The position numbers and the translations under genes are program-made. A stretch of 64,000 bases of DNA, taken from contig JAQCKO010000001.1 in assembly GCA_027592325.1 (NCBI GenBank), forward strand, positions 20,247 to 84,246, read 5' to 3'. The notes below the pieces were generated by a model. It ran no database searches. It had not been told where the DNA came from and worked only from the letters and a program-made list of their open reading frames with translations. Source of the stretch: a bacterium (lineage in GTDB: Bacteria; Patescibacteriota; Patescibacteriia; UBA9934). Positions 314-64,000 of the stretch are shown piece by piece. Position 1 is the stretch's first letter. Every line of letters starts with the position of its first letter.

Positions 314-1010
314 ATTGATGTTTCTTTTTGATGAGTTTCTTTGCGGCTTCGTATTTTTGAATGGCTTTTGGCATGAATCCTAGGCGTTTCCAAGGGATTT
401 TATACGCAATTTTCGGCATCCATTGTGTTCCTATACGCGACGCACCATCAATACGTGCTTTGTACAAATACTCTGGCACGCAAATTCCTGTTTTTCCTTC
501 TGCGAGCATTGTGAGCCATAAATCCCAGTCTTGCAAGCGCCTAACACTTTCATCAAAGCCTGGGAAATCCTCTGCACGAATAAGAGAAGTAGTGTGAATA
601 AAATTTGTGCTCTTTAATTGCTCTTCATCAAACGCAAGAGGCTTGAAGCGCTTCCCCCCAAAATAGAATCCACTATACGCATAACTTGCCGTGCTCGATG
701 TGAGAGCCACTAGCATCTTCTTAAGCGCATACGGTTTCATAACAATGTCTGCATCAACGAAAATGAAATAGTCGCCGGTTGCTGATTTTGCTCCTCTATT
801 CCGCGCGAAATTAGACCCCTGGTTATCTTGATGAATAGCTGTAAGCCGATTTTCGTATACCTCGAGCACTTTTTTTGTACTATCTGTTGATCCATCATCA
901 ACCACAATGATCTCAAGATCAACCCCCTCTTGTACGAGAAGGCTGTCAATACACGCAGGGAGACTTGTAGCATGCTGATACGTTGGAATAATCGCTGAAA
1001 TTTTAGGCAT
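309..1010 (-). CDS. Family 2 glycosyltransferase
   Basis: 233 aa. N-terminus ISAIIPTYQHATSLPACIDSLLVQ...VVDDGSTD is the classic GT2 fold with DxD. Confidence 0.85.
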   Translation of the reverse strand: MPKISAIIPTYQHATSLPACIDSLLVQEGVDLEIIVVDDGSTDSTKKVLEVYENRLTAIHQDNQGSNFARNRGAKSATGDYFIFVDADIVMKPYALKKMLVALTSSTASYAYSGFYFGGKRFKPLAFDEEQLKSTNFIHTTSLIRAEDFPGFDESVRRLQDWDLWLTMLAEGKTGICVPEYLYKARIDGASRIGTQWMPKIAYKIPWKRLGFMPKAIQKYEAAKKLIKKKHQL

Positions 1011-2097
1011 AGCGCTTTATTATTCGCTCGAGCTTTGAAAAGACGCGTTCAGATGTAAATTGCTGCGATCGTTCATGTCCTCTGCGGCCGAGTTGTTGTC
1101 GTCGATCTGGATTCTGAACGAGCTGCTGAAGCCGCTCAACAAGCTCCTCATCATTCTGTACCAGATACCCTGTCTCGCCATCAAGAATTGCCTCTGAAAC
1201 GCCCGGATGGTTGAATCCGACGACGGGAAGCCCAAAATACCCGGCTTCAATATAAACCATCCCAAAGCCTTCCCTGTCTGCTTCAGATTTTGTTGTTGGC
1301 ATGACGAATACATCTGCTGATTGATACGCCTTCACAAGCTCAACATCATCTAACATGCCCGTAAACGTCACGCGGTGATCTATCCCAAGCTTGTGAGCTA
1401 TTGCCTCAAGCCTTGGTTTATCCTCACCATCCCCAGCGATGGTATAGTGGACGTTTTTGAGCATTGGGAGCAGGTTCAACACCCGATCAACCCCTTTTCG
1501 CTCAACAAGACGACATGCGGTGAGCAGGTGAATACTGGTATTTTTATCAGCAACACCTTCGTCATCCGTCCGAAGGCAGGCGGTCATCGAATGACAATCG
1601 ACAAGTGCTGGATTCCCACCTTCGCTGGAATGACGAATCAACGGATTGGATTCGATCAATTCCGAACTCAGCGGCGGATACACAACCATCGGTTTTTCAT
1701 CCTTAGCGAATGCTGCAATTTCATTCGCGAGCGCGTGCGAATTCGTCACAATAAGTTTCGCAGACCAGATGATCCACTTTAGGATCATTCGTCGCCACCA
1801 CGAACGGCGTGCAAGATCAAAATCCATGCCATGAAAAATGAGTACATATGGTGTTCGAGTAACGTATCGCGCAATCATGGCCGCAAATCCAAGTGGATAC
1901 ACATGCGAAATAATGAGAAGGCGTGATGTATGCGCTACCTTTACCACCCAAACAAGTGCCCCTAAAAAACGTGGTGTTTTTGGCCGATAATCAACATCAA
2001 TCGACTGCGCGTAAACGCGGATAAGCTCGGAAAGATACCGAGCAACTCCTCCCTTTTGCGGTGCGTAATCGACAGTTAAGAGACGAATACGTTTCAT
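1003..2097 (-). CDS. Family 1 (GT4-type) glycosyltransferase
   Basis: 364 aa. C-terminal EADREGFGMVYIEAGYFGLPVVGFNHPGVSEAILDGETGYLV is the GT-B retaining glycosyltransferase motif. Confidence 0.85.
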   Translation of the reverse strand: MKRIRLLTVDYAPQKGGVARYLSELIRVYAQSIDVDYRPKTPRFLGALVWVVKVAHTSRLLIISHVYPLGFAAMIARYVTRTPYVLIFHGMDFDLARRSWWRRMILKWIIWSAKLIVTNSHALANEIAAFAKDEKPMVVYPPLSSELIESNPLIRHSSEGGNPALVDCHSMTACLRTDDEGVADKNTSIHLLTACRLVERKGVDRVLNLLPMLKNVHYTIAGDGEDKPRLEAIAHKLGIDHRVTFTGMLDDVELVKAYQSADVFVMPTTKSEADREGFGMVYIEAGYFGLPVVGFNHPGVSEAILDGETGYLVQNDEELVERLQQLVQNPDRRQQLGRRGHERSQQFTSERVFSKLERIIKRYA

Positions 2098-3530: not shown

Positions 3531-3594
3531 AATATGTCTATATTAGTTGATTTTGGACGTAGAAGCAAGGTGGATGAACACATCATTAATCCGT

Positions 3595-3619
3595 GTCATT
3601 CCTGCGAAGGCAGGAATCC
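3595..3619. repeat. Copy of dispersed palindromic hairpin repeat H1 (GTCATTCCTGCGAAGGCAGGAATCC)
   Basis: Near-identical copies in inverse orientation at 45818-45841 and 53359-53386; a variant at 63602-63638. Confidence 0.7.
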
Positions 3620-3674
3620 AACGAATCAAATTTGGCACACGCTAGACCCAGTGTAATCCCGGGGTGGCTAACAG

Positions 3675-3725
3675 ATCCCTCACATTCGTTCGGGAATTAC
3701 GAATTCTCGAGCCTCACGAGAGGTC
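3675..3725. repeat. Inverted pair of the R2 repeat unit (GATCCCTCACATTCGTTCGGGAATT / GAATTCTCGAGCCTCACGAGAGGTC)
   Basis: The left half is the reverse complement of the R2 unit AATTTCTCGAACGAATGTGAGAGATC seen at 61209-61234 and 63641-63666. The right half resembles the copy at 59953-59977. Confidence 0.6.
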
Positions 3726-3812
3726 GATTTGCATTCAATACAAAAACCCACTCCTGCGAGTGAGTCTTTGTATTGAAGCTCGATTGTTAATTGCTATTTC
3801 AGCTGTCCGCGA

Positions 3813-45085: not shown

Positions 45086-45862
45086 TTACGGCAACTTTTT
45101 CACAGACTTCTGAAGCCGTTTCATCTCGGCACGTTTTTCTTCTATTCCGGCCATAATCTTGTCTGCATGCTTTGGACGTTCAAGGTTTTTTTGCGTATAG
45201 GGACAGGCATCGGCAATGGGACATGCCCAGCAGCGTGGATTTTTTATACAGATATACCGTCCAAATGGCACAAACACCTGATTTACAATACGTTTATTCT
45301 CGTCTGGAATAAGCTCAAGAAGTTGTGTCTCGGTTGATGCAGGTGTGTGAGATTTCACCCATCCAAGACGTTTTGTGACCCGATGGACATGCGTATCAAC
45401 GGCAATTGCAGGCTTGTTAAATGCATACGGTAAGAGAACACTAGCCGTTTTACGTCCAACCCCTGGAAGCTGTATCAATTCCTCCATAGTCTTCGGCACT
45501 TCCCCGCCAAATGTATCGCAGAGCATAATGCCAAGTGCCACCAAATGCGTTGCTTTTTGACGAAACATACCAATGCTTGAGATATACGGAAGAATCTCTT
45601 CTTTTGATGCCCCTGCAAGCGCATGTGCGTCGGGAAATCGATCAAATAATGCCGGTAGTAGTTTCAAGACCTGTTCATCCCGCGTTCTTGCAGAAAGAAG
45701 AACAGCTACCAAACATTGATAGCTATTTCCAATCGCAAGCCCGCCCTGTTCTGGAAACGCCTTTTTCAGTCGATTAAGAACGTCGATCACGATTTCTTGT
45801 TGATTCTCGCTTCGATTGATTCCTGCCTTGGCAGGAATGACGAATTTCTGATGCTGAGCCAT
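45086..45862 (-). CDS. nth: Endonuclease III (HhH-GPD with 4Fe-4S cluster) carrying a ~40-aa basic C-terminal extension
   Basis: LLSARTRDE ... LPGVGRKTASVLL ... CxxxxxxCxxCxxxxxC (CIKNPRCWACPIADACPY). Confidence 0.85.
   Translation of the reverse strand: MAQHQKFVIPAKAGINRSENQQEIVIDVLNRLKKAFPEQGGLAIGNSYQCLVAVLLSARTRDEQVLKLLPALFDRFPDAHALAGASKEEILPYISSIGMFRQKATHLVALGIMLCDTFGGEVPKTMEELIQLPGVGRKTASVLLPYAFNKPAIAVDTHVHRVTKRLGWVKSHTPASTETQLLELIPDENKRIVNQVFVPFGRYICIKNPRCWACPIADACPYTQKNLERPKHADKIMAGIEEKRAEMKRLQKSVKKLP
45818..45855. repeat. H1 hairpin repeat copy (GATTCCTGCCTTGGCAGGAATGA) plus partial R2 (CGAATTTCTGATG)
   Basis: See the repeat families. Confidence 0.6.
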
Positions 45863-53356: not shown

Positions 53357-53358
53357 AA

Positions 53359-53386
53359 GGATTCCTGCCTTCGCAGGAATGACGAA
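53359..53386. repeat. H1 hairpin repeat copy (GGATTCCTGCCTTCGCAGGAATGACGAA)
   Basis: Perfect 9-bp stem with a TTCG loop, between convergent genes. Confidence 0.65.
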
Positions 53387-54616: not shown

Positions 54617-54686
54617 CAGAGCCGAAGCTGAGTGGTCAGCGCCGACATGGCAGTCGGAGGTCGCAGGTTCGAATCCTGCCGGCTCT
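54617..54686 (+). tRNA. tRNA-like gene with canonical acceptor, D and T arms (GGTTCGAATCC) but a 6-nt anticodon loop (ATGGCA); identity undetermined, possibly GGC-like
   Basis: AGAGCCG/CGGCTCT acceptor, GCTG-AGTGGT-CAGC D-arm, GCAGG-TTCGAAT-CCTGC T-arm. The only consistent anticodon stem (CCGAC/GTCGG) leaves a 6-nt loop. No encoded CCA. Confidence 0.55.
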
Positions 54687-54688
54687 AT

Positions 54689-54760
54689 TGCATCTGTAGC
54701 TCAACTTGCTAGAGCAGCGAACATGGTTCGAAGGTCAACGGTTCAAACCCGGTCAGATGC
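54689..54760 (+). tRNA. tRNA-like gene / possible tRNA pseudogene: D-loop lacks GG, and the anticodon arm is 2 nt short (CGAA-CATGG-TTCG)
   Basis: GCATCTG/CAGATGC acceptor, GCTC-AACTTGCTA-GAGC D-arm, AACGG-TTCAAAC-CCGGT T-arm (one mismatch). 2 nt after the previous tRNA. Confidence 0.4.
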
Positions 54761-54774
54761 ATTCTTCCGCGCAT

Positions 54775-57997: not shown

Positions 57998-58168
57998 ATT
58001 GGGCCATGCTAGTTGATTTTCGCTTGAAAGTAAAGGAAGTGAATAGCGAGTAGAAAGTAGGAGTGGAAAGTAGGTTTGAGCGTATCTCGAGCCAACAGCT
58101 TACAGCTACGTTATAACTTGCATCCATCAAATTTTTGTGATACCTTATTCGTCACTGAAGGAGGAACC

Positions 58169-58342
58169 ATGCCCGAAGATCCGAAGATGATTGGCCAGCA
58201 ACCATCACCGCCACCAACAGAACCCCCCACACCGGTCCGCTCATCGAGTGGACTGGAGTTGAGAACGGTGATGGTTCCAATGCCCCAACGCCCCCCCATG
58301 CTCGCCCTAGCCGAAGACGTTGTCGGCTGGCAGCGCAAGTGA
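58169..58342 (+). CDS. Possible small Pro-rich ORF with a strong RBS (GGAGG), in a 60% GC intergenic block
   Basis: MPEDPKMIGQQPSPPPTEPPTPVRSSSGLELRTVMVPMPQRPPMLALAEDVVGWQRK (57 aa). Other frames of the same GC-rich block are also open and Pro-rich, so coding status is uncertain. Confidence 0.25.
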   Translation: MPEDPKMIGQQPSPPPTEPPTPVRSSSGLELRTVMVPMPQRPPMLALAEDVVGWQRK

Positions 58343-58512
58343 TCACCCAACCACCCGCGCCGGTCAGAAGCGTGGAGCCCCCGCAGGACGGACCGTATTC
58401 GCTCCACAATTGGTTCGCACTCTTCAAGCCAAAAAAGCCCAAAACCTACACTCCCCCTCACCCCGCCGGCGACAAGAAGCGCTAGCGGGGTTTCTCTTTC
58501 GGTCGAAAAAAT

Positions 58513-58560
58513 GGTAACTCGGTTACCGAAATTTCGGTAACCGAGTTACCATTTTTTTTG
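58513..58560. terminator. Perfect 20-bp palindromic bidirectional terminator (AATGGTAACTCGGTTACCGAAATTTCGGTAACCGAGTTACCATTTTTTTT)
   Basis: A-run before, T8 after. Lies between the GC-rich block and murC. Confidence 0.7.
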
Positions 58561-58581
58561 CGCACATGCTAATCTACACCC

Positions 58582-59856
58582 ATGTTCGAAGCGCAAAACG
58601 TACACATTATCGGTATTGGAGGGATTGGAACATCAGCTGTTGCCAGATGGTTTTTGGAGCAGAATAAAGCGGTTTCTGGGTCTGATGCGAAAGCGAGCGA
58701 CTTAACCCATGCGCTCTCCAAAGAAGGCGCTCAGGTAAAGCTTGGACACTTCGCCGACAATATTCCTTCTGTGTGTGACTTCATCGTTTACTCAAGTGCC
58801 GTTCCGAAGACAAACGTTGAACGCCAGGCGGCAGACGAACGTGGTATTCCCTCGCTTTCATACCCAGAATTTCTCGGACAGCTCGCCAAAACAAAACGCA
58901 CGATTGCTGTAAGTGGAACAAATGGAAAATCGACCACAACGGCAATGATTGCGAAGATTTTTCTTGATGCCGGGTTCGATCCTACCGTCATTATTGGAAC
59001 AAAATCTCCCGATCTCCCACACGAGAACCTGCGCATTGGAAAAAGCGATTGGTTCATTGTTGAAGCATGTGAGCATATGGCGCATATGCTCAATATTGCG
59101 CCCGAGATTGCCGTTGTCACGAATGTGGAAGAAGATCACCTCGATTTTTACCGCGACATTGACCATATACGCGATAGCTTTCAGGAATGGATTGACGGTG
59201 CGAAGTATATTGTGTTGAATGCGAAAGATACTGAATCGCAAAAATTGAAAACCACCGGTGCCTCTTACTTTGGTCTTGGTGCCGATATTCAACTATCCGT
59301 ACCTGGAGCATTCAATCAAGCAAACGCGGCAGCGGCGATTGAGGTCGCGAAACTTGCGGGGATTGATGAAGCAAACGCACGAGCAAGCCTGAAGGCCTTT
59401 CAAGGAACCTGGCGGCGTTTCGAGATGGTTGGCGCACGGAATGGAACCGACATCTACTCAGACTATGCCCATCATCCGACCGCGGTTCAGGGGGCGATTC
59501 AAGGCTTTAAAACGAGTTTCCCTGATCGTCGGCTGATCATCTGTTTCGAACCACATCAATTCTCTCGTACCGAAGAGCTATTCGATGAATTCGCCGCAAG
59601 TTTCGGCAACGCGGACGTTTTGATTCTCTCTGAAATTTATGAAGTGGAAGGCCGAAATGAATCACATGGCATTACATCAAAAGATTTAATCGAAGCGATC
59701 AAAAAACAAAGCCCAAATTTGGACACACATTATGCAGCAAATTTACATGAAGCAGAAACGCTTGTGCGGCGCATCATCGAAAACGGTGATATTTTCGTCG
59801 CGATGGGCGCAGGTGACATTGATCAAATTGCGCGGAATTTAGTTGATGGTAAATAG
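58582..59856 (+). CDS. murC: UDP-N-acetylmuramate--L-alanine ligase
   Basis: 424 aa. IIGIGGIGTSAVA ... GTNGKSTTT Mur ligase motifs. Confidence 0.9.
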   Translation: MFEAQNVHIIGIGGIGTSAVARWFLEQNKAVSGSDAKASDLTHALSKEGAQVKLGHFADNIPSVCDFIVYSSAVPKTNVERQAADERGIPSLSYPEFLGQLAKTKRTIAVSGTNGKSTTTAMIAKIFLDAGFDPTVIIGTKSPDLPHENLRIGKSDWFIVEACEHMAHMLNIAPEIAVVTNVEEDHLDFYRDIDHIRDSFQEWIDGAKYIVLNAKDTESQKLKTTGASYFGLGADIQLSVPGAFNQANAAAAIEVAKLAGIDEANARASLKAFQGTWRRFEMVGARNGTDIYSDYAHHPTAVQGAIQGFKTSFPDRRLIICFEPHQFSRTEELFDEFAASFGNADVLILSEIYEVEGRNESHGITSKDLIEAIKKQSPNLDTHYAANLHEAETLVRRIIENGDIFVAMGAGDIDQIARNLVDGK

Positions 59857-59952
59857 GCTCCGTCGTGTCTTGTGTCTCTCACCACCATCATTACAATCTG
59901 CAGGCAGCAATGCGAACAAACATGGTTCATGCTTCGTAAGAAAACGATTTGT

Positions 59953-60012
59953 GAATTCTCGAGCGTAGCGAGAGATCAACTCGCGTAGATCCCTCGCCTC
60001 ACGACGTTCGCT
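59953..60012. repeat. Inverted pair of R2-like repeat units (GAATTCTCGAGCGTAGCGAGAGATC ... GATCCCTCGCCTCACGACGTTCGCTC)
   Basis: Same architecture as 3675-3725, in the murC-murB spacer. Confidence 0.55.
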
Positions 60013-60047
60013 CCCGGCTGAGCCGAGCAGGCTGGAATTCACCATCC

Positions 60048-61055
60048 ATGACCTGTAAGCTGAAACGTTTCTCCTTACCTCTAACCACTACCATGACCTT
60101 CGAAGAACACCTTCAATCTATCTTCCCTGGCCGGCTGAAAACAAATGAGTTGCTTGGAAAACATTTAAATTTTCGCATTGGCGGTCCTGCCCGATTTTTT
60201 GCTGAGGTAAAAACCGTCGAAGAGCTTGTCCATGCTATTCAGCTCTGTAAAGAACATGAGGTCGAATTCTTCGTACTTGGCGGAGGGTCGAATACGCTTG
60301 CAAGCGATGAAGGATTTGATGGCGTCGTCCTTAAGCTTGCTATGCGTGACATTGTAATCAACGGAACACATCTTGTTGCTGATGCTGGAGCAATATCTGC
60401 ATCTGTTGCGCGCAAAACGGCCGATGCTGGGCTTGCCGGATTCACTTGGGCCATCTCGCTCCCAGGAACCATAGGCGGTGCGATTCGTGGAAATGCTGGC
60501 TGTTTTGGAGGCGAAATGAAAGATACCGTGACCAAGGTGGAAGTGTATCGTGTTGGTCAGATTGTGGAACTCACCAATCGCGATTTAAAATTTGGATACC
60601 GAGATTCGTGGGTTAAACACTCAGACGATATTGTTCTGCGGGTCTACATGGAGCTGCAGAAAAGCAATCGTGAAGAACTTCTTGCCGAACTGAAAGCCAT
60701 TGTTGAAAAACGCAAAGCATCACAGCCACTTTATGCAGGAAGCGCCGGATGCATTTTCAAAAACTATGAGATAGATTCCGTCGAGGAGCTGAAACGGTTG
60801 AAGGCCTATGATGTCTTCCCCGAAGCCATGCTAGAAGCGCGTCGTATTTCGGCTGGCTGGGTGATTGACCAGCTGGACCTCAAAGGAAAGCAAATTGGCG
60901 GCGCGAAAGTAAGCGACGAGCATGGGAATTTCGTCGTAAATTTAGGCGATGCAACAGCAGATGACATTGTGCAACTTGTTGCGCTCATCAAAACAAAAGC
61001 GCGCAACACCTTCGGTATTCAGCTGCACGAGGAAATTAAGTACTTAGGGTTTTAG
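60048..61055 (+). CDS. murB: UDP-N-acetylenolpyruvoylglucosamine reductase (FAD-binding); alternative start at 60096
   Basis: 335 aa. FRIGGPARFF ... FVLGGGSN FAD-binding PCMH motifs. Confidence 0.85.
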   Translation: MTCKLKRFSLPLTTTMTFEEHLQSIFPGRLKTNELLGKHLNFRIGGPARFFAEVKTVEELVHAIQLCKEHEVEFFVLGGGSNTLASDEGFDGVVLKLAMRDIVINGTHLVADAGAISASVARKTADAGLAGFTWAISLPGTIGGAIRGNAGCFGGEMKDTVTKVEVYRVGQIVELTNRDLKFGYRDSWVKHSDDIVLRVYMELQKSNREELLAELKAIVEKRKASQPLYAGSAGCIFKNYEIDSVEELKRLKAYDVFPEAMLEARRISAGWVIDQLDLKGKQIGGAKVSDEHGNFVVNLGDATADDIVQLVALIKTKARNTFGIQLHEEIKYLGF

Positions 61056-61081
61056 GTATGCAGCGCGATCCATGTCTTGCG

Positions 61082-61165
61082 TAGCTATTGGCGTAAGCTG
61101 TTAGTCCGGCAGCTTATCTACGATTAGTGCCGGATCCGGCTGAGTAAAACGACAGCCGGACTAGT
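61082..61165 (+). repeat. ~85-nt hairpin-forming intergenic element (IR-A); its first 33 nt are perfectly repeated in inverse orientation at 63767-63799
   Basis: TAGCTATTGGCGTAAGCTGTTAGTCCGGCAGCT... Internal AGTCCGGC...GCCGGATCCGGC...GCCGGACT stems. Confidence 0.65.
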
Positions 61166-61208
61166 AGCAAGTAGCCGAGCTTATCCTTCACTGCGTTCAG
61201 GAATGTAC

Positions 61209-61234
61209 AATTTCTCGAACGAATGTGAGAGATC
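61209..61234 (+). repeat. R2 repeat unit AATTTCTCGAACGAATGTGAGAGATC (preceded by a partial H1)
   Basis: Identical 26-mer at 63641-63666. Confidence 0.7.
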
Positions 61235-61382
61235 TCTTCGTCACACCTGCGAAGTTAAGGATCCAGCGAATCGAACACGAAAAACGAGAGATTGCCACTT
61301 TGTTCACTCCTCGAAGTACAAATTACCGAAGGTTCTTGACCACAACCCACCACCTACAACCTAATCTCTAACCTATTCCAGT

Positions 61383-62639
61383 ATGCACATCAAACAAATC
61401 GACCCCGACATCACCAAATATCTCGAGGCTGAGCTGAATCGTCAGCGAGAAGGGCTTGAAATGATTCCATCTGAAAACTTTACCTCACGCGCCGTGCTTG
61501 AAGCACTTGGATCCGTTGCAACGAATAAATACGCAGAGGGCTATCCGGGACGGAGATACTATGGAGGATGTGAATTTATTGACAAGATTGAACAGCTTGC
61601 AATTGACCGCGCCAAGGAGCTCTTTGACGCGGAGCATGTGAATGTTCAACCGCTTTCAGGAGCACCGGCAAATATCGCGGTCTACGAAGCCCTGCTTGAA
61701 CCAGGCGATACCGTGCTTGGGATGGATCTTTCGCATGGCGGCCATCTCACCCACGGACATCCGGTGACGCAATCGGCCCACATCTATAACTTTATCCGCT
61801 ACAAAACGAATACCGAGGGAGTCATCGATCTTGATAATCTGCGTAAGATGGCGCTTGAACATAAACCGAAAATGATCTTAGTCGGGTATTCTGCCTACTC
61901 ACGTGAGATTGATTTTGAAGCCGTGAAAGCCATTGCCAATGAAGTTGGCGCCCTCACCATGGCTGATATCGCTCATATTGCCGGACTTATTGCCGGTGGC
62001 GTGATGAAAAATCCTGTGCCTATTTTTGATGTTGTCACAACAACCACACATAAATCCCTTCGCGGGCCGCGTGGTGGAATGATTCTTTGTAAAAAGCAAT
62101 TCGCGAAGGCCGTGAATAAGGCTGTCTTTCCGGGATTGCAAGGAGGACCTCATGAAAATGTGATAGCAGCGAAGGCTATTGCATTCAAAGAAGCGCTTTC
62201 ACCAGAGTTCAAAGTATATGCTGCACAAATCAAAGCAAATGCAAAAGCGCTTGAAGTGGTATTTATAGAAAATGGCTACAACATCATGTTCGGAAAAACC
62301 GAGAATCATCTGTTACTTGTTGATGTTATGAGTTCAAAGAATGTGACCGGTCAACAGGCAGAAGAAGCGCTCGATAAGGCTGGGATCACTGTGAATAAAA
62401 ATATGATCCCCGACGATCCTCGCAGTCCATTCGATCCTTCAGGAATTCGATTCGGTACCCCTGCCCTTACAACCCGCGGGATGAGAGAAGAGGAAATGAA
62501 ACAAATTGCGGGGTGGATGCATGAAGCAATTATCAATCATGAGGATGATGCCAAGCTCGCAGCAATTCGCGAAGATGTGAAGCAACTCACCGCCCGCTTC
62601 CCGCTGTATGAGGGATTGAGTTACGAAAGGGGGGAATAA
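61383..62639 (+). CDS. glyA: Serine hydroxymethyltransferase
   Basis: 418 aa. PLP-binding TTTTHKSLRGPRGG. Confidence 0.95.
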   Translation: MHIKQIDPDITKYLEAELNRQREGLEMIPSENFTSRAVLEALGSVATNKYAEGYPGRRYYGGCEFIDKIEQLAIDRAKELFDAEHVNVQPLSGAPANIAVYEALLEPGDTVLGMDLSHGGHLTHGHPVTQSAHIYNFIRYKTNTEGVIDLDNLRKMALEHKPKMILVGYSAYSREIDFEAVKAIANEVGALTMADIAHIAGLIAGGVMKNPVPIFDVVTTTTHKSLRGPRGGMILCKKQFAKAVNKAVFPGLQGGPHENVIAAKAIAFKEALSPEFKVYAAQIKANAKALEVVFIENGYNIMFGKTENHLLLVDVMSSKNVTGQQAEEALDKAGITVNKNMIPDDPRSPFDPSGIRFGTPALTTRGMREEEMKQIAGWMHEAIINHEDDAKLAAIREDVKQLTARFPLYEGLSYERGE

Positions 62640-62710
62640 GCGAATATCACTTCCTACACTCCCATAATTCCTTTACTTTTCCCCTAATTTATCGTATTCT
62701 CGCCGCATCT

Positions 62711-63547
62711 ATGAGCGAGCTTTTACGAGGAACTCCGCTTGCAAAAGCGATCCGTCAAAAATTAAAAGAACGTATTTCAGGCCATGTGGAAACACCAGGA
62801 CTTGCAGCAATTTTGGTTGGCGACGATCCAGCTTCGCACCTCTACGTCAGCCTTAAAGAACGTGCAGCAAAGCAGGCGGGAATGTATTTTGAGCGCATTG
62901 AATTCCCTGCCGATATCACCCAAGGCAAGCTGATAAAAGCAGTGAAAAAGCTGAATGAACGTGATGATATTCACGGCATTTTAGTTCAGCTTCCCCTCCC
63001 CAATCAAAATGAAGACGCCGTGATTGCAGCCATTAATCCAAAGAAAGATGTTGATGGATTTCATAAAGAGAGCTTGAAGGCCCTCGAAAAAGGAGAACGG
63101 AGTTTAATTCCACCTGTCGCACTTGCGGTCATGCGTCTTGTACAAGCGAGCCAGCAACCGCTTCAGAATAAAACGGCCGTGGTGCTTTCGAATCATGAAA
63201 TTTTTGCGTCGCCGATTATCGAACTCATGAAAGAAGCAGGTGTGAGTGCGAGCTATTTGAACCCAAATAGCTCATCACTTGCCTCAAAAACACGTGCGGC
63301 AGATATTATCGTTATCGCCCTCGGTCGCGCAGGCTTCCTTACTCCGCACATGGTTGAACCAGGAGCAATCGTGATAGACGTTGGCACGAATGAAACGGAA
63401 GATGGCGTTGTTGGCGATATTGCGCCGGAGCTGATTGGCCATGCCGGTTTTGTAAGCCCCGTTCCCGGAGGCGTTGGTCCACTTACGGTCGCTTACCTTC
63501 TAAACAATGTCGTCCGAGCAATGTTGTTGCAGCGGGATAGTGATTAG
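62711..63547 (+). CDS. folD: Bifunctional methylenetetrahydrofolate dehydrogenase/cyclohydrolase
   Basis: 278 aa. GILVQLPLP ... PGGVGPLT. Confidence 0.9.
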   Translation: MSELLRGTPLAKAIRQKLKERISGHVETPGLAAILVGDDPASHLYVSLKERAAKQAGMYFERIEFPADITQGKLIKAVKKLNERDDIHGILVQLPLPNQNEDAVIAAINPKKDVDGFHKESLKALEKGERSLIPPVALAVMRLVQASQQPLQNKTAVVLSNHEIFASPIIELMKEAGVSASYLNPNSSSLASKTRAADIIVIALGRAGFLTPHMVEPGAIVIDVGTNETEDGVVGDIAPELIGHAGFVSPVPGGVGPLTVAYLLNNVVRAMLLQRDSD

Positions 63548-63601
63548 GGTTTCAGGGGCTACAGCTCTCGGGTTTCAGCTTACAGGTATGGTGTAGATCT
63601 C

Positions 63602-63666
63602 GTCATTCCTGTACCAGCCTGACGGCAAACAGGAAATCACAATTTCTCGAACGAATGTGAGAGATC
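63602..63666 (+). repeat. H1 variant (with an 18-nt insertion) fused to the R2 unit
   Basis: GTCATTCCTG-taccagcctgacggcaaa-CAGGAAATCAC + AATTTCTCGAACGAATGTGAGAGATC. Confidence 0.65.
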
Positions 63667-63714
63667 CATAATTACCGTCGCCCCATAAATCGAACCGAGT
63701 TCAGCGTTTATCAT

Positions 63715-63799
63715 CATCCTGTCCGGCTGTCGCATTGCTCGCCGGATCTGGTACTTCTCAAAGATGAGCTGCCGGACTAACAGCTTACGCCAATAGCTA
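63715..63799 (-). repeat. Inverted copy of the ~85-nt IR element (IR-B); the terminal 33 nt 63767-63799 are the exact reverse complement of 61082-61114
   Basis: AGCTGCCGGACTAACAGCTTACGCCAATAGCTA. Confidence 0.65.
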
Positions 63800-64000
63800 T
63801 CAAAGGAACGTCGACACAATTCCGAAGACCATAACGAGTGCTGCCAAAAACACCACCCACGTAGGAATCACCAAACAGCGCTTTGGGAGGCATACATGCC
63901 CCTTTGCCCGCTCGTATAAAAGAATGATTAATAGCCCTGTCGAGCTGACAAAAATCGATCCGGTAACGCCAATAACGCCAATAAAATCTCGCGCCCCAAG
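63800..64000 (-). CDS. C-terminal end of an unidentified membrane protein, 5'-truncated at the window edge
   Basis: Minus-strand frame reads ...GVIGVTGSIFVSSTGLLIILLYERAKGHVCLPKRCLVIPTWVVFLAALVMVFGIVSTFL*. It ends at 63800. Confidence 0.35.
   Translation of the reverse strand, partial: LGARDFIGVIGVTGSIFVSSTGLLIILLYERAKGHVCLPKRCLVIPTWVVFLAALVMVFGIVSTFL

Follow-up and report, generated by a model that had tools for sequence, protein, structure and literature searches.

The systems closest to the repeats treated here are known from two lines of published work. The CGTC-1 family of repetitive extragenic palindromes (REPs) has a CGTC or TGTC tag, an 8-bp stem starting with AT, a 4-nt loop and a CCA tail; its units form dimers and are intergenic, with occasional intragenic copies (PMC3733652). 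In Neisseria this family is dRS3, for which no enzyme was known in 2013 (PMC3733652). Descriptions of the Ssn nucleases and of their hairpins date only from 2025 and deal mainly with cultured Proteobacteria (PMC11893778). SsnA is a 94-aa single-domain GIY-YIG protein that binds NTS, the longer form of the dRS3 repeat in Neisseria, and cuts nearby, on single-stranded DNA (ssDNA) only; it does not bind RNA, and ssn genes are typically flanked by such hairpins, termed Ssn-related motifs (SRM). The base most important for SsnA binding is the C right after the palindrome, for cutting, SsnA relies on the three bases upstream of the palindrome, and the SsnA-NTS pair has a modulating influence on natural transformation of N. 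meningitidis (PMC11893778). Here we analyze two short hairpin repeats, R2 and H1, in 64,000 nt of a Patescibacteriota genome (UBA9934; assembly GCA_027592325.1, contig JAQCKO010000001.1, positions 20,247 to 84,246), referred to below as the window. R2 and H1 belong to one superfamily of tagged hairpin repeats, arranged as mosaics of independent units in a few spacers. Judged by its sequence, H1 is a canonical NTS-like CGTC-1 REP. R2 is a real repeat of a known class, forming a subclass with a G.A-containing stem in a phylum beyond published work. As a whole explanation, and largely by analogy, we think it probable that R2 is a CGTC-REP/SRM hairpin, with H1 as the canonical NTS-like member, and that both belong to Ssn-linked cassettes that leave gene-less copies.

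Four significant R2 copies were found in the window with a covariance model (CM R1, here the R2 model) trained on 22 non-window copies and run over the whole window with filters off. Circularity was avoided because the training copies came exclusively from other genomes. Two type a copies, with the loop region GAACGAATGTGA, lie on the plus strand at 61207-61238 in the murB|glyA gap (E 6.1e-9) and at 63639-63670, 92 nt past the folD stop (E 2.9e-8). They share the 26-mer AATTTCTCGAACGAATGTGAGAGATC at 61209-61234 and 63641-63666, exactly as the first-pass annotation of this DNA had reported; the 26-mer had 0 matches in 100 shuffles, and the two sites are identical across 28 nt (61207-61234 and 63639-63666) and 92% identical across 37 nt. 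The third type a copy is on the minus strand at 3670-3701, in the gap between rpsI and a flippase-like gene (E 8.4e-8), where 3674-3696 is a reverse-complement R2 copy with 91% identity across 23 nt. It carries a C-G stem pair, T-A in the other copies, and its minimum-free-energy fold is ((((..((....))..)))). The fourth copy, at 59951-59981 on the plus strand (E 3.4e-4), is a type b variant (GAGC-GTA-GCGA) and forms the left arm of a dimer in the murC|murB gap. The next-best model match in the window has an E value of 0.74. All four significant copies are intergenic, and intergenic gaps make up about 10% of the window. A C directly 3' of the palindrome (...GAT-C or GGT-C) is present at 61207, 63639, 3670(-) and 59951 as well as in an arm at 3698-3725, and the R2 tail is CTC or CCA.

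On ssDNA, R2 folds with an outer stem of 4-5 bp (TCYC/GRGA) and an inner stem of 2 bp, separated by an invariant tandem G.A/A.G, and is closed by the tetraloop GAAT. In a model-based alignment of 31 R2 units, 98% of the cells pair, and the covariation score was reached by none of 500 shuffles. Compensatory changes occur at two of the six pairs (C-G/U-A in nine sequences, A-U/G-C in three): a variable position of the outer stem changes jointly with its partner, and the inner pair goes from A-T to G-C in the variants at L020:3386, at 59951 of the window and at L024:13473 (L and P numbers are our own locus handles). An alternative register that the (TC)n/(GA)n stems permit, with the 3' partners slid by -2, gives 84% pairing and no compensatory change. 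The check for a conserved structure with compensatory changes, suggested in the first-pass annotation, was thus run and turned out positively, with few positions free to vary.

A genome scan with the R2 core TTCYCGAACGAATGTGAGRGAT returned four sites, all in Patescibacteria metagenome-assembled genomes (two Ryanbacteria, one Saccharibacteria and one unclassified), and the same core is present in 14 metagenome loci and two IMG/VR contigs, with a GC content of 34-67%. A 20-22-nt core is common to about 20 unrelated contigs. It is not confined to Patescibacteria, because at least the L020 contig encodes PurH and a TonB_C protein, both atypical for that phylum. Outside Patescibacteria the form is mostly TGTC[AT]-TCYC-GAACGAATGTGA-GRGA-TC(T/C), i.e. 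TGTC[AT]-TCYC-GA-AC-GAAT-GT-GA-GRGA-TC; the tags of the other Patescibacteria copies are AAGT, AGCT and AACT, without GTC. Elsewhere R2 occurs singly or inverted against a second unit of the same or another kind (L015, L016, L018 and L020), and in L022 it adjoins GTCATTCC-type hairpins. Pfam searches of the ORFs beside R2 in the metagenome loci found ordinary housekeeping genes and no transposase, and a literature search for the R2 core string matched no paper.

Some of these loci have features of their own. L019:1-130 is a tandem R2 array with a 38-nt period in which the sequence between units is identical; a CRISPR-like array was considered for R2 and rejected on account of these identical "spacers." The "viral" contig L022 has 67% GC and is crowded with hairpins of the GTCATT[CG]C type, whose inner stems are long; for its six largest ORFs (222-617 aa) there was no Pfam match. 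In the Ryanbacteria-like loci L002:4985-5185, L004:2425-2625 and L009:40-280, R2 is part of a larger conserved element (about 170 nt) whose ends are long-range inverted sequences (CTCAGTGTCTTCG ... CGAAGACACTGAG), and two of these elements follow a tRNA gene directly on its 3' side. An RNA gene downstream of a tRNA was considered as the identity of R2 and rejected.

The connection to Ssn emerges from the murC|murB gap. The gene order folD- glyA- murC+ murB+ hpf+ ... secA+ is common to five relatives, and the interval between murC and murB takes several states: 2 nt in L031, overlapping genes in L033, 69 nt in L028 and a DUF559 gene in the P0008 locus. In the related contig L032 the gap is 740 nt and contains a small membrane ORF followed by a 93-aa ORF with an R2-like unit on either side, the two being inverted (E 0.015 and 1.3e-4 with the R2 model). 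In the window it is 191-236 nt and contains an R2b dimer and no gene. The 93-aa ORF encodes a GIY-YIG domain protein (Pfam PF01541, E 3e-17) and aligns with the SsnA orthologue of N. gonorrhoeae, whose gene has nine NTS copies around it, with E 1e-11 and 35% identity at 96% coverage; the tie to SsnA was made via the Neisseria chromosome record, PDB and NCBIfam not separating cd10448 from other small GIY-YIG families. Further matches, with E values down to 2e-20, are GIY-YIG genes of Planktothrix, Shinella, Spirosoma, Sinorhizobium, Azospirillum and Novosphingobium, most of which were checked and are flanked by tagged hairpins.

Beside the ssn homologues, the R2 model has two matches in Spirosoma (E 6e-5) and three in Planktothrix (E 6e-4 to 1e-3). 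In these hairpins outer stem, GA, inner stem and loop follow one another as in R2, and the published SRM pattern misses them. Together with L032, the related Patescibacteria contig, these two genera bring the places where R2-type hairpins called by the model flank Ssn homologues to three. The arms of the window dimer also resemble the ssn-flanking hairpins of L032: the left arm beats 99% of shuffles (21 of 2000 as good) and the right arm 99.85% (3 of 2000). In Ryanbacteria (L002/L017) the R2-bearing element is followed after about 110 nt by the start of a GIY-YIG gene, which is a one-sided case. As a control on the published association, a model of NTS-type hairpins (the ssn-flank model described below) has 77 matches at 38 ssn homologues in IMG/VR, and nearly all of them are no more than about 300 nt from the gene.

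H1 has the form (C/T)GTC-ATTCCTGC-GAAG-GCAGGAAT-CCA, with CCA or CCT as its tail, and differs from NTS (CGTCATTCCCGCGMAVGCGGGAATCYRG; PMC11893778) by one compensatory pair (C-G to T-A) and the tail. Because H1 and R2 both miss the published SRM pattern, a second covariance model (CM R2, here the ssn-flank model) was built from hairpins flanking ssn homologues in Neisseria, Azospirillum, Shinella, Sinorhizobium and Photobacterium. It finds four H1 copies in the window, with E values from 7e-9 to 2e-5. The best, at 3594-3621 on the plus strand, is an NTS-like CGTC-1 hairpin with a TGTC tag (E 6.7e-9; DNA fold z -3.4). Two others on the minus strand lie between convergent genes (53357-53384; E 5.7e-8) and at the predicted 5' end of an HhH-GPD gene (45815-45842; E 2.3e-5). 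The fourth, at 1608-1635 on the minus strand (E 1.5e-6), is intragenic: it is read in frame, as RHSSEGGNP, within a glycosyltransferase gene, 1003-2097(-). Intragenic REPs of this kind have been reported for Rickettsia and others. Perfect 8-bp stems are kept in three H1 copies. Two more units belong to the same series, namely a plus-strand H1 variant at 63602-63637 with a 16-nt loop, a CGTC tag and a 7-bp stem (DNA fold z -3.1), and a decayed plus-strand H1 at 61239-61266 (ssn-flank model E 7.7) that is identical to 3593-3630 at about 28 of 37 positions by eye.

H1 and R2 tend to share gaps. Three of the four gaps that bear R2 also hold H1 or a decayed H1, and R2 is found in three of the five that bear H1; over 27 gaps the hypergeometric p is about 0.013, a value inflated because the repeats themselves lengthen these gaps. 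The first-pass annotation had placed both identical R2 copies immediately after H1-like sequence. This holds for the copy at 63639, which has the long-looped H1 directly 5' of it, and an H1 also lies 50 nt from the copy at 3670. At 61207 the upstream neighbor is more plausibly a weak inverted R2-like unit, and the decayed H1 is directly 3' of the R2 copy. The same genome has another such gap, L024:13440-13870, about 2.8-3.2 kb past the left end of the window, with an R2b/R2a head-to-head dimer, an R2c unit and an H1. This mosaic of about 430 nt also has further small hairpins, including ...TTCGACTCACTACATTCGCTCAGGATCTCGCAATGAC, and contigs of another assembly (L025) stop there. The proposed composite H1-R2 module therefore survives as a set of related, clustered and plausibly mobile units and not as a fixed one: order, spacing and orientation differ at every site, so H1 plus R2 is not one composite element. 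What makes mobility of the class plausible is the existence of hairpin-ssn-hairpin cassettes, among them the one that a relative carries between murC and murB.

R2 had also been described as head-to-head pairs of diverged units at 3675-3725 and 59953-60012. The first pair (3670-3725) is indeed head-to-head; the second (59951-60015) is tail-to-tail. In each, one arm is supported by the R2 model, namely 3670-3701(-) and 59951-59981, and the partner arms at 3698-3725 and 59985-60015 went undetected by that model in the scan of the window. The plus-strand partner at 3698-3725 is an R2b-like unit, head-to-head with 3670-3701, whose own hairpin has a DNA fold z of -2.6. The minus-strand partner at 59985-60015 in the murC|murB dimer is decayed and is the arm that aligns with the right ssn-flanking hairpin of L032. 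Segments 3694-3732 and 59946-59984 share 74% identity over 39 nt, the arms relating loosely to each other or to R2b. The weak inverted unit upstream of 61207, at 61178-61208 on the minus strand, is of the GAACGCAGTGA type and head-to-head with the 61207 copy (R2 model E 0.74); a unit of this type recurs at L024:13795-13820, adjoining an H1. The hairpins of about 25 bp that the pairs were suggested to form were not borne out. The arms within each pair are only about half complementary, folding predicts separate small hairpins, and the dimer z-scores are -1.5 and -0.02 as DNA, and -0.59 as RNA for the second pair. For comparison, a perfect dimer with 25-bp arms in metagenome contig L016 has a z of -11.7. 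Each inverted pair is a heterodimer whose units fold separately, and the functional unit is the single tagged hairpin.

By analogy with SsnA and NTS in Neisseria, these observations can be assembled into a mechanism. An Ssn protein, a single-domain GIY-YIG nuclease of about 93 aa, would bind the hairpins and nick nearby, on ssDNA only, and its gene would typically be bracketed by its own hairpins. Copies would arise or remain as hairpin-ssn-hairpin cassettes, gene-less single units or dimers, and would pile up in a few tolerant intergenic spacers to give the H1/R2 mosaics. On the same analogy, an Ssn enzyme of this genome would act on R2. The R2 and H1 elements may move, and R2 may have a role in handling incoming or replicating ssDNA. 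The Patescibacteria R2 copies might be bound but uncut, or cut by an Ssn of other specificity, or they might be relics.

Several results weigh against this explanation. The published SRM pattern, HGTCWYN(0-2)YYVSBRHN(0-5)WNVSBRGN(0-2)RNCYNB, has two matches in the relative L028 and nine in a Neisseria control, and none in the window, neither R2 nor H1; H1 misses it because of the compensatory T-A pair, its sole failure. The SRM-derived ssn-flank model, run on the window, did not find R2 either. The tags of the window R2 copies are CAAT, GTAA and GTGA, without (C/T)GTC, although SsnA cutting relies on the three bases at that place. The isolated R2 hairpin is weak, at -2 to -3.7 kcal/mol as DNA with z from 0.85 to -1.05. 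The pattern used to collect R2 fixes most core positions, so covariation could be tested at few of them. Few R2-type matches occur at the 38 IMG/VR ssn loci (4, all of them weak, E > 0.02), and the R2-ssn link consequently rests on three loci and the one-sided case in L002. Lastly, a search of 74 kb, that is the window and an extra 10 kb of the same genome, found no Ssn homologue (best E 0.29).

A stronger form of the Ssn explanation would make hairpin-ssn-hairpin an active mobile element with a new GIY-YIG ssDNA nuclease mechanism, the R2 dimers being gene-less derivatives or excision footprints. Its basis is the murC|murB gap, which among Patescibacteria relatives is in some cases essentially empty (2 nt, overlap, 69 nt) and in others contains either the full cassette or a solo dimer. 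We give this form a minority chance. If it were true, the cross-phylum core would be the trace of a single nuclease specificity that spread horizontally, perhaps between episymbiotic Patescibacteria and other bacteria.

The alternative that fares best is that R2 and H1 are inert fossils here, left by a lost SRM-ssn element and serving as neutral spacer and occasional recombination substrates. The lack of an ssn gene in the 74 kb and the loss of the GTC tag from the window R2 copies fit such a history, decay is plain to see in several partner arms and in one H1, and Di Nocera et al. considered that CGTC families may be heading for extinction (PMC3733652). Yet two R2 copies are identical across 28 nt, three retain the full cross-phylum 20-nt core, and three H1 copies have perfect stems; moreover, 74 kb is a small part of the genome, so the absence of ssn there says little. 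We consider this alternative doubtful.

A role as RNA appears less probable again. On this account R2 hairpins in 3' untranslated regions or intercistronic RNA would stabilize upstream mRNA or mark its processing, in keeping with all four significant copies lying between same-strand genes, forward on the transcribed strand, and with the general enrichment of REPs downstream of ORFs (PMC3733652). A shared orientation in four of four copies has p = 0.125, however, and the partner arms are oppositely oriented. The hairpin is weak as RNA as well (-6 to -7 kcal/mol, z about -0.9), and SsnA does not bind RNA. Rfam searches of the window and the Patescibacteria loci at gathering and permissive thresholds returned tRNAs only, with nothing over R2 at E<=5. 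Terminator scans had no site at R2, which has no T-run, and a Rho-independent terminator was rejected as its identity on these grounds; the terminator-like hairpin of rpsI, at 3746-3761, is a separate element.

It is very improbable that R2 is a classical REP/REPIN moved by a RAYT (an IS200/IS605-like Y1 transposase). Inverted dimers do exist, including the perfect one in L016, and R2 units are dispersed hairpins with a short 5' tag, but that tag is not GTAG or GTGG, the gene between R2-like units encodes a GIY-YIG nuclease, and no Y1 transposase, nor any other transposase, was found in Pfam calls over about 0-51.5 kb or in ORF scans over 45.9-63.5 kb of the window. CGTC-type REPs, for their part, have never been found flanking RAYT genes (PMC3733652). 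Chance or low-complexity intergenic similarity, which the first-pass annotation had named as the result that would undo R2 and for which the (TC)n/(GA)n stems and the weakly matching partner arms might be cited, can be set aside given the 26-mer shuffles, an E value down to 6e-9 from a model of other genomes and a core found in about 20 unrelated contigs.

In the window, SecA and MurB are up to 66% and 67% identical, respectively, to their closest named homologues (Patescibacteria group, Candidatus Uhrbacteria); a relative at about 90% identity for intergenic comparison was not found, MurB homologues being at most 69% identical. The window genes are ordinary housekeeping, cell-wall and type IV pilus genes. 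Across 58000-63800 the murC-murB block is inverted relative to the five relatives, the window order being secA- .. murC+ murB+ glyA+ folD+; both breakpoints are in repeat-rich gaps, and hpf is missing from this neighborhood. An 80-nt inverted repeat, 86% identical, brackets glyA-folD (61082-61161 and 63721-63799). It has internal palindromes with TAGTCCGGC[AT]G arms and has no copy in the other loci; the L023 contig of another assembly ends inside it, as expected for a multi-copy repeat. A perfect 52-nt palindrome at 58506-58557, with 26-bp arms, no spacer, and A6 and T8 on its flanks, lies between a divergent 116-aa ORF (-) and murC (+), and scores as bidirectional terminator-like with no plus-strand gene end there. 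Two Rfam tRNA-like matches lie 2 nt apart at 54618-54687 and 54690-54761; ARAGORN calls the first only, with an unassignable anticodon. The relatives (P0008 locus, L027, L028, L031 and L032) have scattered small, possibly selfish genes nearby, including DUF559 (a Vsr-like endonuclease) between murC and murB, several 23S_rRNA_IVP and DUF1653.

If the Ssn explanation is right, the Ssn system, or at least its DNA half, extends into Patescibacteria. Published censuses probably undercount the family, because the search pattern misses the tandem-G.A/GAAT subclass. Conservation of a 20-22-nt core in very different genomes points to a strongly constrained protein-DNA interface, and the states of the murC|murB gap (essentially empty, cassette, gene-less dimer) offer a concrete handle on element mobility. 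Patescibacteria are thought to depend on DNA uptake, and an ssDNA-specific nuclease with cognate sites in this group would be of interest for that reason. The basic picture of such repeats is unchanged by the R2 findings.

Compared with known systems, the H1/R2 mosaics recall the NIMEs of Neisseria and the BIMEs of E. coli in that short families (here H1, R2a/b/c and I1) are interleaved in varying order and orientation; the arrays here are smaller, with two to four units per gap, and lack regular alternation. With REP/REPIN-RAYT systems they share a single-copy nuclease or transposase gene bracketed by hairpins and gene-less inverted dimers dispersed elsewhere. They differ in having GIY-YIG in place of HUH-Y1 and no GTAG tag, and their transposition is hypothetical. 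The CGTC-REPs are closer. H1 fits every published feature of CGTC-1 (PMC3733652), and the H1 and R2 units resemble the class in their head-to-head and tail-to-tail heterodimers, their placement between unidirectional or convergent ORFs and their one intragenic copy. R2 fits in part, with a stem of 4-5 + 2 (G.A) + 2 positions, the loop GAAT and, in the window copies, no tag; the non-Patescibacteria R2 has the TGTC tag, a stem starting with AT, nine stem positions counting G.A and a 4-nt loop. The described CGTC families, including Rickettsia RPE-4 and RPE-6, have fully paired stems of 8-9 bp, unlike R2, which was compared with them by their descriptions. They have been reported from Proteobacteria, Chlorobi, Bacteroidetes, Spirochaetes and Thermotogae and not from Patescibacteria, nor does the Ssn paper mention that group (Chenal et al. 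2025, Nat Commun 16:2388, PMC11893778). R2 departs from the NTS and SRM of that paper by the tandem G.A in its stem, its conserved GAAT loop and, in Patescibacteria copies, the lack of a GTC tag. What R2 and H1 share with the Ssn system is that they are short hairpins in many intergenic copies, tagged in H1 and in most R2 copies outside Patescibacteria, with a C after the palindrome, and that R2-type hairpins bracket single-domain GIY-YIG genes of about 93 aa homologous to SsnA.

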